From: Escherichia phage vB_EcoM_SA20RB
Sequence record: OL960581
Reading direction: 5' to 3' (one strand)
Length of the DNA stretch: 64,000 nt
Notes under the pieces: model-generated
What the model saw: only the letters and a program-made list of their open reading frames with translations
The model's database searches: none
Told to the model about the DNA's origin: nothing
Translations under genes and position numbers: made by a program
In this document: positions 8,832-50,697 of the stretch, piece after piece
How positions within the stretch are numbered: the stretch's first letter is position 1
Layout: each line of letters begins with the position of its first letter

Positions 8832-10151
8832 TCATACATAAAATACATCATAACGACCACGGGTAACACCAACATAAAGAAGCTGCTGAGCTAGTTCAGC
8901 ATCTGCATAATGAATACAAGGCGTATAGATAAAAGCACGGTCTACAGACATGCCCTGAGCTTTATGGAATGTTGATGCAGGAAGTGCTTTCACTTTACTG
9001 AACTGTGATTTAGCATCCCAAAAATCACTCCACGGAGCTTTTCCACCTTTATTCCAATTTTTATAAGTTTCTGCCGTTTTACCTAAAAATAGGTTAAACT
9101 TATATAGCTCTTCATCAGATGAAATTATTTTAATCTTTTCACGATAATATTCATCATCGCCGTAAGTTTCTACTGTTAAATCCCAATGACGAATTAGATA
9201 TTCTCCAGGAACACCACGAGCTTTAACAAATGTTGATGTATATTCTGCTTCTATAATACGAACTAATTGTCCGTTATTAAAAATAATTTCTGACACAGGC
9301 TTTCCATCAATTTTATATGTTTTAATTAATGGTTCCTGCATTACAATAATTTCACCAACGATAAAATCTTTATCAGTTTCAAAAATCTTTTTACGAATAA
9401 TGCTATTTAACTTGTCAACAGATTTATTCGTAAATGCCATTACGCGATTTTCAAACAAATCATCTAGTGATTTTACGATTGAAAAATAATTTACCATAAA
9501 ATCGCGTAAAGCGGTATCACCAGTAAATCCACGTACTCCATGCCCGTCAACAATTTTATCATAAATCCACTTACCATTACGAACATCAGTAGCTACATCA
9601 ATAATAGGAGCATTACTGCGTTTAACTTCAGTGAGTTCACACTGATAAAAATCTTTGTGTGTAAAGAATGGACTGATATAAGCAGTATTTTCTCCTGGAT
9701 CAACAGGTCTAATTTGCTTATTATCACCTATTCCAATTATAGTACACCAAGGTGGAATAGTTGAAAGCAGAATTTTAAATAGCTTTCTATCATACATTGA
9801 CACTTCGTCGCAGATTAATACCCTGCATTTAGCTAAATCTGGTACTTCCTTCTGTTCAAAAAGAACGTTTTCTTCATACGTAACTGGGTTAATTTTAAGA
9901 ATACTGTGAATAGTACTCGCTTCTTTCCCCGACAGTTTTGAAAGAATCTTTTTAGCTGCATGTGTAGGAGCTGCCAAAATGATACCAGTTTCGCCTGTTG
10001 ATATTAAAGCTTCAATGATGAACTTAGTAAGAGTAGTCTTACCGGTACCGGCAGGTCCATTAATAGTTACATGATGTTTCTTTTCTTTAATAGCCTTCAT
10101 AACAATGTTAAAGGCATTTTTCTGGCCTTCGGTCAAATCATCAAATGTCAT
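8832..10151 (-). CDS. dda: Dda SF1B DNA helicase
   Basis: 439 aa, the T4 Dda length; Walker A GPAGTGKTT; MTFDDLTEGQKNAFNIV N-terminus. Confidence 0.93.
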   Translation of the reverse strand: MTFDDLTEGQKNAFNIVMKAIKEKKHHVTINGPAGTGKTTLTKFIIEALISTGETGIILAAPTHAAKKILSKLSGKEASTIHSILKINPVTYEENVLFEQKEVPDLAKCRVLICDEVSMYDRKLFKILLSTIPPWCTIIGIGDNKQIRPVDPGENTAYISPFFTHKDFYQCELTEVKRSNAPIIDVATDVRNGKWIYDKIVDGHGVRGFTGDTALRDFMVNYFSIVKSLDDLFENRVMAFTNKSVDKLNSIIRKKIFETDKDFIVGEIIVMQEPLIKTYKIDGKPVSEIIFNNGQLVRIIEAEYTSTFVKARGVPGEYLIRHWDLTVETYGDDEYYREKIKIISSDEELYKFNLFLGKTAETYKNWNKGGKAPWSDFWDAKSQFSKVKALPASTFHKAQGMSVDRAFIYTPCIHYADAELAQQLLYVGVTRGRYDVFYV

Positions 10152-10459
10152 CGTAAATTCCCTGCAATTGGTATACTAACAATACGCCCAGTATCTAAAA
10201 TTCGCTGATATAATCTTTGTGTGTCTACGTCAGGCTTAACATGTTTAACTTCTATTTTATTAAACCAAAATTTACGTGGAGTCTCAACTAATCTTGGAAT
10301 TCCCTTACCTAAAGCTAGTCGATACTGCTCTTTAAGAGTGGTAAATACTTTATCAGCAATCTTCCATTCAAAAAATACAGCAGGACGATGTTCATCAAGT
10401 GGAACTGGCGCCGTAAATCCGTCTTTGTCTCGGTAAACTATCGCATATACATAAACCAT
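10148..10459 (-). CDS. dda.1-position hypothetical protein
   Basis: 103-aa ORF, 4-nt overlap with dda start. Confidence 0.55.
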   Translation of the reverse strand: MVYVYAIVYRDKDGFTAPVPLDEHRPAVFFEWKIADKVFTTLKEQYRLALGKGIPRLVETPRKFWFNKIEVKHVKPDVDTQRLYQRILDTGRIVSIPIAGNLR

Positions 10460-10460
10460 A

Positions 10461-11216
10461 TTATCCTCGGATAAGTTTAAAAATTGAACAATTTAGCGGG
10501 TATCCTCTTTTCAGTTTAAGTTTATCAATAAAAGACAAGTTTTGATACCGCTCTACACCTTGAATAATTTTATCACACATATCATATTGCATTTCTGCTT
10601 CTGACAACTTTTTCACGGTTTTCCAATCCGAGCCTTTAAGAAGAACGTTCAATTTAACAACTTCAGCGCCTTCTGCTATACGAGAACCATCAATACGAGC
10701 TTTGAGTGCTATAATCGTTAGCTTAACGTCAGAAGTTTGTTTTGATTTAGAAAGCTGAGAAATGTGCTCAATTCGGTTTTCACGTTTTTTCTGTATAGCT
10801 TTAATTTGATTATAAGTCTTTTTGATTTTAGCCCATTTCTTTTCATCTAAATTTAGTTTATGAACTTTTTTCGCAGATGAACGACCAATTCGCAAAGCAA
10901 ATAAATCACGCTTTTCAATCAGCTCTTCTAAAGTATAATCAGAACGAAATGTATTATACTTTTTCTTTACTGCAATAACATTCCCTTTAATGTATCCAAC
11001 GTTATTATCAAAACGTTCTAATGATAATTTCTCTCCTTCAATACGATTATCAAAAGGTTCTCCCGAGTAAGCGCAAACTTTCTGATCTAAAATGTTCTTA
11101 ATGTAATTGAAGTCTAAGTTAAAATCTTTAGAACGTCTTTTTGCAGATGCCTGAGTATGCTCTAAACGACGTGTAATTTTACGAATTTGATTTTTGGACA
11201 TATTATGCAGTTTCAT
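10461..11216 (-). CDS. srd: Srd-like protein (sigma-decoy / RNase E modulator in T4)
   Basis: 251 aa between dda.1 and modA, matching the T4 srd slot and size as recalled. Confidence 0.6.
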   Translation of the reverse strand: MKLHNMSKNQIRKITRRLEHTQASAKRRSKDFNLDFNYIKNILDQKVCAYSGEPFDNRIEGEKLSLERFDNNVGYIKGNVIAVKKKYNTFRSDYTLEELIEKRDLFALRIGRSSAKKVHKLNLDEKKWAKIKKTYNQIKAIQKKRENRIEHISQLSKSKQTSDVKLTIIALKARIDGSRIAEGAEVVKLNVLLKGSDWKTVKKLSEAEMQYDMCDKIIQGVERYQNLSFIDKLKLKRGYPLNCSIFKLIRG

Positions 11217-11252
11217 ATTTTTCTCACATCTTACGGACGGTTGACTAACTAT

Positions 11253-11282
11253 ACTATAACATTTTTACCTTGGCTTGTAAAC
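11253..11282 (-). promoter_or_regulatory. early promoter upstream of srd
   Basis: GTTTAC, 18 nt, TATAGT. Confidence 0.6.
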
Positions 11283-11297
11283 AACTTTATGTAAAAA

Positions 11298-11322
11298 TGC
11301 TTTAAAAATTTCATGGTATAAT
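11298..11322 (+). promoter_or_regulatory. plus-strand MotA-box / extended -10 promoter candidate, antisense to modA
   Basis: Plus strand aaTGCTTTA, 12 nt ending in TGg, TATAAT. Confidence 0.45.
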
Positions 11323-11339
11323 GAATCTAAGTCCTTCCA

Positions 11340-11942
11340 TTATAGATTAAATTCTTCAAAATCGAGAGTATAGATAGTGTATGTTGAATACTTTTTATAC
11401 TCATATCTATCTGCAATTCTAAATACACTTCCAGCCGGTATCATTACTTCTTGTTCATCCGAAACTAATTCCATATTACGATAGCGATGGCTATCTGGAA
11501 ATTTAAAGCTTGGATTATATTCTTTACAGCGTAGAGCTTTTATAGCATACTCCTGGAAATTGAATACCATAGGAGCTTTGAATTCAAAAATAACCTGTGT
11601 GTTATATTCTAAACCAGAAGCAAAATGTAGAGCTATATTTTTATCATATGAAGCTGATACGACTTTATCAAATGTAATAATATCAATTCCTTGATTTAAT
11701 ACTTGCTTAGTCTCAGCTGGAACACCTCTCCAAAGAGGTTTATCGTTTGGTTCCAAACGAGATTTGATTATTTCATTTAACCAAGAGTGGTCGTCTGGCT
11801 TATTAGTAATACAATGAATTAAAAGTTCAATTTCGGATAAATTAAATCCTTCAGAAAGTAATTCTTCACGAATAGAAGCACGCACCGATGCATCCATTGA
11901 TTTGATTTTAAAATCTTTTAATTGCATTGCTGAATATTTCAT
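11340..11942 (-). CDS. modA: ADP-ribosyltransferase ModA
   Basis: 200 aa, the T4 ModA length; paralogous to the next ORF (W/YRG..., EQE..IP motifs typical of R-S-E ARTs). Confidence 0.8.
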   Translation of the reverse strand: MKYSAMQLKDFKIKSMDASVRASIREELLSEGFNLSEIELLIHCITNKPDDHSWLNEIIKSRLEPNDKPLWRGVPAETKQVLNQGIDIITFDKVVSASYDKNIALHFASGLEYNTQVIFEFKAPMVFNFQEYAIKALRCKEYNPSFKFPDSHRYRNMELVSDEQEVMIPAGSVFRIADRYEYKKYSTYTIYTLDFEEFNL

Positions 11943-12562
11943 TCAACTACCTCAATATCATACACTTTAAATGTTCCAAATGAATCGTGTAATTTTTCTT
12001 TTGAAATAGAAGTTATTTTATACTTTCCAATTGGAATCATCCATTCTTGTTCACGCACAATCATCATTAAGTTATCAGTACGTTCTGAATCTAATCCATC
12101 AGTATCTTCATATGTATACTTAAACTCAGTATTAGGAGAAGAAAGTATAATATCGCTGATATGGTCAGAATAATTAAAAGCTTTATCAGTTTTTAAGCGA
12201 AATATTATTTCAGTGAAATATTCAGCATAAGAAAAACCGCACGCTGTGTGCAAACTAGTAGTAAATGAATCTACTCTGTTCGTTGAAAACACTTCTCCAA
12301 CTTGTAAATCTTTAATGAGTTCTTTTGTCGATTTTGATATACCACGATATAACTGATAAGGCGATTTAGTTAAATGCTTTTTAATGATTTTATTTAACTG
12401 TCTGTGAAGAGCTTCATTCTTTTTGGCTTCCATACATTGCCAAAGAATTGACTGTTCAAAGTCAGTAAATTTTTCACAGACCTTTTTATACATATCATAT
12501 TGAAAATCAACGCTTTCAGCTTTTATAGATAACTGTTCAACATCTGCAAGATTAATAATCAT
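11939..12562 (-). CDS. modB: ADP-ribosyltransferase ModB
   Basis: Track ORF 211 aa; starting at MIINLADVEQ gives 207 aa, the T4 ModB length; LYRGIS and REQEWMIP motifs. Confidence 0.8.
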   Translation of the reverse strand: MIINLADVEQLSIKAESVDFQYDMYKKVCEKFTDFEQSILWQCMEAKKNEALHRQLNKIIKKHLTKSPYQLYRGISKSTKELIKDLQVGEVFSTNRVDSFTTSLHTACGFSYAEYFTEIIFRLKTDKAFNYSDHISDIILSSPNTEFKYTYEDTDGLDSERTDNLMMIVREQEWMIPIGKYKITSISKEKLHDSFGTFKVYDIEVVE

Positions 12563-12588
12563 GATAGCCTCCATATACTTCAGAAGCT

Positions 12589-16193: not shown

Positions 16194-17218
16194 ATCTTGG
16201 CATATTTAGATAGCCGCATTTTAGCCATTAACCCCTGGGCAATATTATTTTTCATATATTCCATAATTTGTTCAGGGGTTGCACCTTCCTTTCTAATCAT
16301 ATCATTGACATCTTTTGATTTCCAGGGAGATTTATCCCAAAACATAACCCTTTCTCCTGCATCAACTAATTTAGTCATTCGTTTGATAGTGTCAGGGTGA
16401 CGAGGTTCATTATCTAAAACCCACACTCGTCTATCTTTAAATGGAACAACTTCTAGGTCTAATTGACCGCCAGTAATGGCTATACCATTTTCAATAAAAA
16501 GTGAATCTATAGGTCCTTCTAGAACATATACATCACCATCTTTGACTCGTTCAACTCCATAGATTTTTGTTGCCTCAGGATAAGCTTTGATGGTGATATA
16601 TTTTTGAGGAGCATCTTTCTTTAATGCACGTCCTTGAAAAGACTCAGCTTTTCCATTAGCATTATAAATTGGAATAACAAGACGAGGCTCAGGTATTTCC
16701 TTTTTATATGTTCCTGGCGCTATACTGTTAACTAATTTAGGCCATTCAGTTGTAAACCAAAGATATTTCCATTTATCCTTTGGAATACAACGAGCTTTTA
16801 CATATTTTATAATTGGATGGTCTTCCGCCAGTTTATCTAATCTAATACATGACGGAAGAGATTTAATTATTTTCTTCTCAGGTTGTTTAGGAAGTTCTTT
16901 AGGTTTTTCTACTGGACGACTTTTACCTTTTTCTTTTCTTATTTCAAAGATATACTCACGATATAAATCAGGTTCAAACTCCTTTAAATATATTCCGATT
17001 GGTGCATGATAGTTGCAGTTATAACAATGAATATTTCCTTCATTATTATCGCCATAATACCATCCACGGGCTTTATTTTGATCGGTTTTTGAATCTCCAC
17101 AAACAGGGCATCTAAACCGTAATTTAAAAGTTGAACTATTATTTACTTGTGCGAATTTAGGCAAATGAGCTAATGCACGGTATGCAAACTCATTATCAAT
17201 CCAAGGTATTGATGACAT
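16190..17218 (-). CDS. 61: DNA primase
   Basis: 342 aa, the T4 gp61 length; zinc ribbon CPVCGDSKTDQNKARGWYY...CYNC; MSSIPWIDNEFAYRALAHLPKF. Confidence 0.95.
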   Translation of the reverse strand: MSSIPWIDNEFAYRALAHLPKFAQVNNSSTFKLRFRCPVCGDSKTDQNKARGWYYGDNNEGNIHCYNCNYHAPIGIYLKEFEPDLYREYIFEIRKEKGKSRPVEKPKELPKQPEKKIIKSLPSCIRLDKLAEDHPIIKYVKARCIPKDKWKYLWFTTEWPKLVNSIAPGTYKKEIPEPRLVIPIYNANGKAESFQGRALKKDAPQKYITIKAYPEATKIYGVERVKDGDVYVLEGPIDSLFIENGIAITGGQLDLEVVPFKDRRVWVLDNEPRHPDTIKRMTKLVDAGERVMFWDKSPWKSKDVNDMIRKEGATPEQIMEYMKNNIAQGLMAKMRLSKYAKI

Positions 17219-50642: not shown

Positions 50643-50697
50643 AATAATCTCAATTAAAAGGGCTTAGAACCATTATACCATCCTTGGTATAAAGCGG

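Follow-up and report, generated by a model that had tools for sequence, protein, structure and literature searches.

The 123-nt intergenic region between srd and modA in Escherichia phage vB_EcoM_SA20RB houses, on the plus strand, a close match to the middle promoters of phage T4, which points antisense into the ADP-ribosyltransferase genes modA and modB and recurs at the same place in seven genera of the Tevenvirinae. Our preferred reading, which we hold tentatively, is that this site is a genuine, selected middle promoter dependent on MotA and AsiA, and that antisense transcription from it would silence the mod genes at middle times. The window analysed is a 64,000-nt stretch of sequence record OL960581, to which positions refer unless another record is named. 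The features of the region are:

8832-10151, minus strand: dda
10148-10459, minus strand: dda.1
10461-11216, minus strand: srd
11253-11281, minus strand: sigma-70 early-type promoter of srd (TTTACA, 17 nt, TGtTATAGT), found by a generic −35/−10 scan
11295-11304, plus strand: MotA box aaaTGCTTTA (core TGCTTTA, 11298-11304), a perfect match to the consensus
11305-11316, plus strand: 12-nt spacer aaaatttcatgg, whose last three bases, TGg (11314-11316), are a TGn extended −10
11314-11334, plus strand: 21-nt block TGGTATAATGAATCTAAGTCC, the same as in T4 PuvsY from the extended −10 to +6
11317-11322, plus strand: −10 hexamer TATAAT, a perfect match
11329, plus strand: predicted transcription start (A), the seventh base after the −10 element, placed by analogy with T4
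11329-11942, then into modB (to 12574 and beyond), plus strand: predicted non-coding transcript, antisense to all of modA
11340-11942, minus strand: modA (RNA polymerase ADP-ribosyltransferase), the first gene under the predicted antisense transcript
11939-12574, minus strand: modB (ADP-ribosyltransferase), the second gene covered, absent transcript termination

The region from srd to modB shares about 96% identity with phage T4 and with some 500 further Tequatrovirus genomes. The early promoter of srd and the antisense promoter are separate elements, arranged back-to-back with overlapping upstream regions. The srd promoter is found in the genera whose intergenic regions are 123-153 nt long and is missing where these measure 80-87 nt. 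In T4, srd, dda.1 and dda possess promoters of their own.

Two side observations concern srd. Near the 5′ end of its leader lies a 13-nt motif, CGTCCGTAAGA(C/T)G (window 11227-11239; minus-strand RNA CGUCCGUAAGAUG), which folds as a small hairpin and is kept in T4, RB69, Bp7 and VR25; in Jiaodavirus it is located within the spacer of the antisense promoter. The hairpin may be a 5′ stabiliser or a processing signal of the srd mRNA. Inside modA, the sense strand holds a middle-promoter-like site, aaaAGCTCTA-12-agaaTATAAT (predicted start near 11507, minus strand), which scores 16.3 bits in the window and 14.1 bits at T4 12075 with the weight matrix described below and is missing from the list of mapped promoters. 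Judged by its sequence, this site could drive srd at middle times.

The consensus of T4 middle promoters comprises a MotA box, (a/t)(a/t)(a/t)TGCTTtA, centred near −30 and separated by 12 ± 1 bp from a −10 element, TAtaaT (PMC2988021, Hinton 2010), and about half of these promoters carry a TGn extended −10 (PMC2988021). The site between srd and modA has all three features, namely the MotA box, the 12-nt spacing and a −10 element reading TGgTATAAT. The sequence-only reading had described the box, the 12-nt spacer ending in TGg and the TATAAT on the plus strand exactly as they stand, and its statement that they face the opposite way to the surrounding genes is borne out by the ORFs from dda through modA.4, every one of which lies on the minus strand. 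The generic sigma-70 −35/−10 scan does not pick up the site, as would be expected of a promoter in which a MotA box replaces the −35 element. Mapped T4 middle promoters mostly start at the seventh base after the −10 element; a start at the corresponding A11329 would place the modA stop codon 11 nt downstream of +1. T4 has motA and asiA at 161-164 kb, beyond the 64-kb window, and from its identity of about 96% to T4 the source phage presumably encodes MotA and AsiA. The TGn extended −10 may, in addition, permit weak firing independent of MotA.

We rebuilt the full T4 genome, took 58 experimentally mapped middle promoters from the table of a review (PMC2988021) and used them to build a weight matrix with terms for the MotA box, the length of the spacer and the extended −10. 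At 22.2 bits, the site is the top middle-promoter match on both strands of the window, a score that none of 200 dinucleotide-preserving shuffles reached (best score: mean 16.0, sd 1.5, maximum 20.1). The strict pattern TGCTTTA-N11-13-TATAAT has three matches in the window against 0.06 expected, the other two being on the gene strand, and a relaxed pattern has 18 against 5.0 expected, six of them on the plus strand. Pattern counts, weight matrix and shuffles rule out a chance match. In T4, the counterpart of the site, one spacer SNP apart, ranks second genome-wide, just over PuvsY and above all 58 mapped promoters.

The top match in T4 (22.3 bits) falls between genes 3 and 2 (AF158101, about 75960-76015, TSS 76000, plus strand) and reads taaTGCTTTA-13-gtggTATAATgggtctAAGTCCCTTCCATT, with the core tggTATAATgggtctAAGTCCCTTCCATT the same as in the modA site. 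It points antisense into gene 2 and is not among the 58 mapped T4 promoters. This sister site is present in RB69 (Pm:79256, Nolan 2006) and absent in KpV477, where genes 3 and 2 abut.

The 21 consecutive bases that the modA site shares with PuvsY, the promoter of T4 oriF/ori(uvsY), extend from about −16 to +5/+6. PuvsY reads ...TGCTTCAcgttaaaacgTGGTATAATGAATCTAAGTCCatcc, and its mapped start, T4 115371, is the A equivalent to the predicted start of the candidate. Over the 4 nt before and the 18 nt after the −10 element, the candidate and PuvsY have an identity of 0.86; the median for the 58 known middle promoters is 0.32. Since PuvsY is a mapped, MotA-dependent promoter (PMC2988021, PMC3016281), this identity makes it very likely that the candidate, too, fires in vivo. 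The two promoters differ in that PuvsY expresses uvsY in the sense direction, whereas the candidate has no downstream gene, and in their upstream halves, where the candidate has the box TGCTTTA with a 12-nt spacer and PuvsY has TGCTTCA with a 13-nt spacer; the candidate's box is the better one.

PuvsY orthologues in six other genera have in common a downstream pattern of the TATAAT-GGTTCT-ARG type (TATAAT-G-R-W-T-Y-T-A-R-G...), and a related TATAAT-G-R-W-T-Y-T-A-R-G sequence is carried by P34i, the promoter of oriG. We considered the downstream GAATCTAAGTCC motif as an origin signature and rejected it, as promoters of ordinary genes (T4 PnrdC.7, and PrnlB in both RB69 and Bp7) have it as well. 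The shared downstream module thus marks a strong subclass of middle promoters and not origins specifically. General concerted evolution of the candidate and PuvsY within genomes was likewise rejected, since the excess of within-genome over between-genome similarity is not significant (permutation p = 0.08), their near-identity being specific to Tequatrovirus and striking in T4 alone. In the window, the orthologues of T4 PnrdC.7, PnrdD and PrIIB2, with predicted starts at 50665, 43865 and 123 (all minus strand), share part of what follows the −10 element of the modA site (TATAATggttctAAGCCC, TATAATgaatctgA and TAAAATggttgctGAG, respectively). The pattern suggests that a promoter-plus-leader module may have been reused among the strongest middle promoters.

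Two annotated start codons of uvsY look wrong. In Bp7 (locus extract position 10356) the annotated ATG overlaps the −10 element of the promoter (tataATGg), and in RB69 (locus extract position 9599) the start as annotated adjoins gene 25 and precedes the promoter; the true starts are probably further downstream in both phages.

At the mod-srd locus, we compared RB69 and moskry (Mosigvirus), Bp7 (Dhakavirus), VR25 (Gaprivervirus), CGG4-1 (Gelderlandvirus), myPSH1140 (Karamvirus), and PKO111 and KpV477 (Jiaodavirus). The ModA homologues fall into two groups, with at least 95% identity to the window's ModA in Tequatrovirus and at most 36% (25-36%) in the other genera. The motif occupies the same position and orientation in all seven genera (Tequatrovirus, Mosigvirus, Dhakavirus, Gaprivervirus, Gelderlandvirus, Karamvirus and Jiaodavirus); its loss where the flanking genes are conserved, which the sequence-only reading had named as the observation that would count against it, was seen in none of them. 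On the strand opposite mod, all relatives have the box (T/C)GCTTT(A/T/C), followed after 12-13 nt by TATAAT, a hexamer that is perfect in 10 of the 10 genomes examined. The spacer and flanking sequences diverge across genera, and the promoter elements and their spacing alone are kept. Furthermore, in all seven genera the −10 element ends 17-45 nt ahead of the stop codon of the last mod gene, so that the RNA would begin just outside the ORF and span the whole mod gene. The site is the best promoter-like match at the mod loci of seven of the eight relatives, the exception being VR25, which has a variant box, CGCTTTT, and a lower score. In Gelderlandvirus, Karamvirus and Jiaodavirus, the intergenic region of 80-87 nt is essentially the antisense promoter plus the ribosome-binding site of srd. 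Within Tequatrovirus, the box, the TGG, the −10 element and +1 to +10 are invariant in seven sequences, with SNPs between the MotA box and +10 confined to the spacer, and 507 records contain the element at an identity of at least 90% to a 50-nt query. An IMG/VR scan yielded six near-identical relatives, which are uninformative on divergence.

This pattern of conservation bears on whether the plus-strand promoter is itself what is selected. The conserved bases could instead serve the minus strand, as an UP element, terminator, processing site or leader for srd, with the plus-strand promoter incidental. Indeed, in T4 and in the window the start of the srd early promoter has the MotA box some 40-60 bp upstream, where an UP element would be expected. 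We nevertheless regard this as extremely improbable. Gelderlandvirus, Karamvirus and Jiaodavirus have no separate srd early promoter and the motif persists in them, which rules out a by-product of that promoter's UP element. Moreover, keeping only two hexamer blocks and a spacing of 12-13 nt is the signature of a plus-strand promoter and not of a minus-strand RNA or terminator, and the intergenic region contains no terminator-like site on the minus strand. It is also very improbable, in our view, that the promoter is active but has no selected function and represents tolerated transcriptional noise. AT-rich phage genomes do readily yield promoter-like sequences, as the six relaxed plus-strand matches in the window illustrate, but the others among these have poor −10 elements, whereas the site tops the window and beats every shuffle. 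It is kept, furthermore, even though ModA identity drops to 25-36%, and even in minimal intergenic regions.

What the promoter would express can be narrowed down from the downstream sequence. There is no ATG ORF downstream on the plus strand, and reading frames of 30 aa or more in the next 400 nt all open with GTG or TTG and are embedded in modA in antisense orientation, in agreement with the earlier statement that the site has no plus-strand ORF to express; the next plus-strand gene in T4 is gene 53, at 77 kb. No Rfam family matched the downstream RNA, and its folding is no better than that of shuffles (z = −0.13). No position-conserved intrinsic terminator was found in seven genomes, which offer weak candidates of a hairpin and T-run at about −6 kcal/mol. 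With no ORF, family, structure or terminator, the predicted product is an untranslated RNA complementary to modA and then to modB. We give almost no credence to the idea that the site expresses a small plus-strand protein or a structured small RNA gene. A 35-aa GTG ORF is present at 11377-11484 (plus strand), but it lacks an ATG, is wholly antisense in modA and cannot be conserved, because the ModA protein itself is only about 30% conserved between genera. The small RNA gene was rejected on the Rfam, folding and terminator searches, all of them negative, and the small protein on the restriction of the ORFs to non-ATG frames antisense within modA.

We favour, as a working explanation and over an origin primer, that middle-time antisense transcription silences the mod genes together with early read-through; this is possible, and we put it forward with reserve. 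ModA and ModB are early, toxic enzymes, which makes an off-switch at middle times plausible. A few minutes post infection, a non-coding RNA starting at A11329 would run convergently into modA and modB, and its most likely job would be to shut down the mod operon after its early work. Polymerases from the antisense promoter, predicted to be very strong, would collide head-on with polymerases arriving from the upstream early promoters, and the antisense RNA could pair with modA/modB mRNA, blocking translation or provoking decay. The collisions would also lower early read-through into srd, dda.1 and dda. The placement is that of a cis-antisense RNA, on the opposite strand, with +1 11 nt outside the modA stop codon and overlapping the target; a defined terminator was not found, and interference by collision does not require one. 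That the promoter keeps strictly to a place just beyond the mod ORF in seven genera is compatible with selection to cover mod, and the lack of an ORF, RNA family, structure and terminator is in keeping with an RNA whose effect comes from its synthesis or from base-pairing. We infer that silencing is the effect under selection.

Known phage cis-antisense RNAs, or cases of convergent-promoter interference, include lambda OOP, directed against cII, and P22 sar, directed against ant. These resemble the modA site in the position of the promoter, at the 3′ end of a regulatory or toxic gene or beyond it, and in its later firing back over that gene. They differ from it in that the OOP and sar RNAs are short and have defined terminators, whereas the candidate has no evident terminator and is predicted to depend on a phage activator. 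Several considerations weigh against silencing. The sister promoter at gene 3/2 faces late genes in antisense, and the logic of an off-switch is not obviously applicable to these. The one non-coding antisense middle promoter that experiments have characterised in T4, P34i, functions as a replication origin and not as a regulator. Early mRNAs, besides, have short lifetimes in any case and the early promoters are closed down by other routes, so that an additional shut-off mechanism may not be needed.

The explanation to be weighed most carefully against silencing is an origin of the oriG/oriF type, in which the untranslated middle transcript would stay as an R-loop and prime rightward leading-strand synthesis. 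We consider it unlikely, while giving it real weight; the silencing and origin models are not mutually exclusive. By definition, oriF and oriG each combine a middle promoter with an unwinding element that follows it, and no particular sequence is required there for the R-loop to form (PMC3016281). A middle-mode promoter is, by sequence, present at the modA site. The sequence-only reading had offered either an origin-type element or an antisense regulator, and the resemblance to oriF and oriG on which it drew is real: the site has the 21 bases in common with the oriF promoter PuvsY, and P34i, the promoter of oriG/ori(34), likewise is a middle promoter pointing antisense into a gene, with nothing to encode. 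However, the shared downstream sequence also occurs on the sense promoters T4 PnrdC.7 and RB69 and Bp7 PrnlB, and oriA is annotated 4.9 kb away. The parallel with P34i has its own limits. P34i lies inside a late gene and fires leftward, as is usual for middle transcription, whereas the candidate is intergenic and fires rightward, against early and middle transcription; and the link to replication is experimental for P34i and hypothetical for the candidate. P34i is kept at the homologous antisense position in RB69 gene 34 (atTTGCTTTA-13-agagTATAATggttcc, 18.6 bits, record position 151561, minus strand), although this copy is missing from the 2006 list of RB69 promoters. Conserved antisense middle promoters thus have a precedent as origins.

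A readily unwinding stretch downstream of the start is evident only in T4 and the window. In T4 and in the window, the duplex from +1 to +100 of the modA site is among the 2-3% least stable stretches, compared with 12% for oriF and 28% for oriG. In the relatives, 7-48% of background stretches are as unstable or more, so low stability is an inconsistent feature, and oriG itself does not stand out by this measure. We therefore rejected nearest-neighbour duplex stability as a discriminator of origins, since it does not separate the known ones from other promoters.

The position of the annotated origins can be set beside this. Array mapping puts oriA in the vicinity of soc (15.3-15.6 kb), and a MotA-dependent promoter close by is reported to serve it through a mechanism that is poorly understood (PMC3016281). 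In the origin explanation, the modA site may contribute to the poorly defined oriA activity. The T4 record, against this, places oriA at 16763 and names the transcript of gene 56 as its primer, so the candidate is not the annotated oriA. The other origins in that record are at 79355 (oriE), 115321 (oriF) and 152947 (oriG); none is annotated at 11.9 kb, and a limited literature search found no report of one there. GC skew has no inflection at the site, which counts against an origin, although a review says the same of oriA and oriC (PMC3016281). A fork primed at the site would also meet about 60 kb of early and middle transcription head-on. To our knowledge, plasmid screens recovered only ori(uvsY) and ori(34); toxicity of the mod genes could have hidden a fragment with the modA site. 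A bolder form of the origin explanation would make the site a third R-loop origin of the oriF/oriG class, possibly with a twin at gene 3/2, present throughout the Tevenvirinae, underlying the ill-defined activity of the oriA region and overlooked through its "wrong" direction and its unclonable toxic neighbours. We judge this version distinctly improbable.

As an oriG-like antisense middle promoter of the MotA type, the element has apparently gone undescribed. The list of 58 mapped T4 middle promoters (PMC2988021) does not contain it, the closest entries being Pdda.1 at 11138 and P56/69 at 16813. Its RB69 orthologue appears as "Pm:12081" on the plus strand (12081-12122) between modA and srd (Nolan et al. 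2006, PMC1524935, Additional file 4), there as a supplementary HMM prediction only (score 7.9, with a 1-bp insertion), undiscussed and with no comparison with T4 (PMC1524935). For T4, 22 antisense starts are reported in a dRNA-seq study (GSE255091).

The two best middle-promoter matches in T4, the modA site and the gene 3/2 site, are thus both antisense and both uncatalogued among the mapped promoters. That they occur in T4 is of wider relevance, as this phage is the reference system for phage transcription and replication, and the intergenic location of the modA site makes clean point mutants easy. If the site primes replication, the decades-old question of the nature of oriA becomes directly testable. 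If, as we tentatively favour, it silences modA and modB, T4 would have its first instance of antisense control driven by MotA, and the ADP-ribosyltransferases, which are currently of wide interest, would gain a new regulatory layer.
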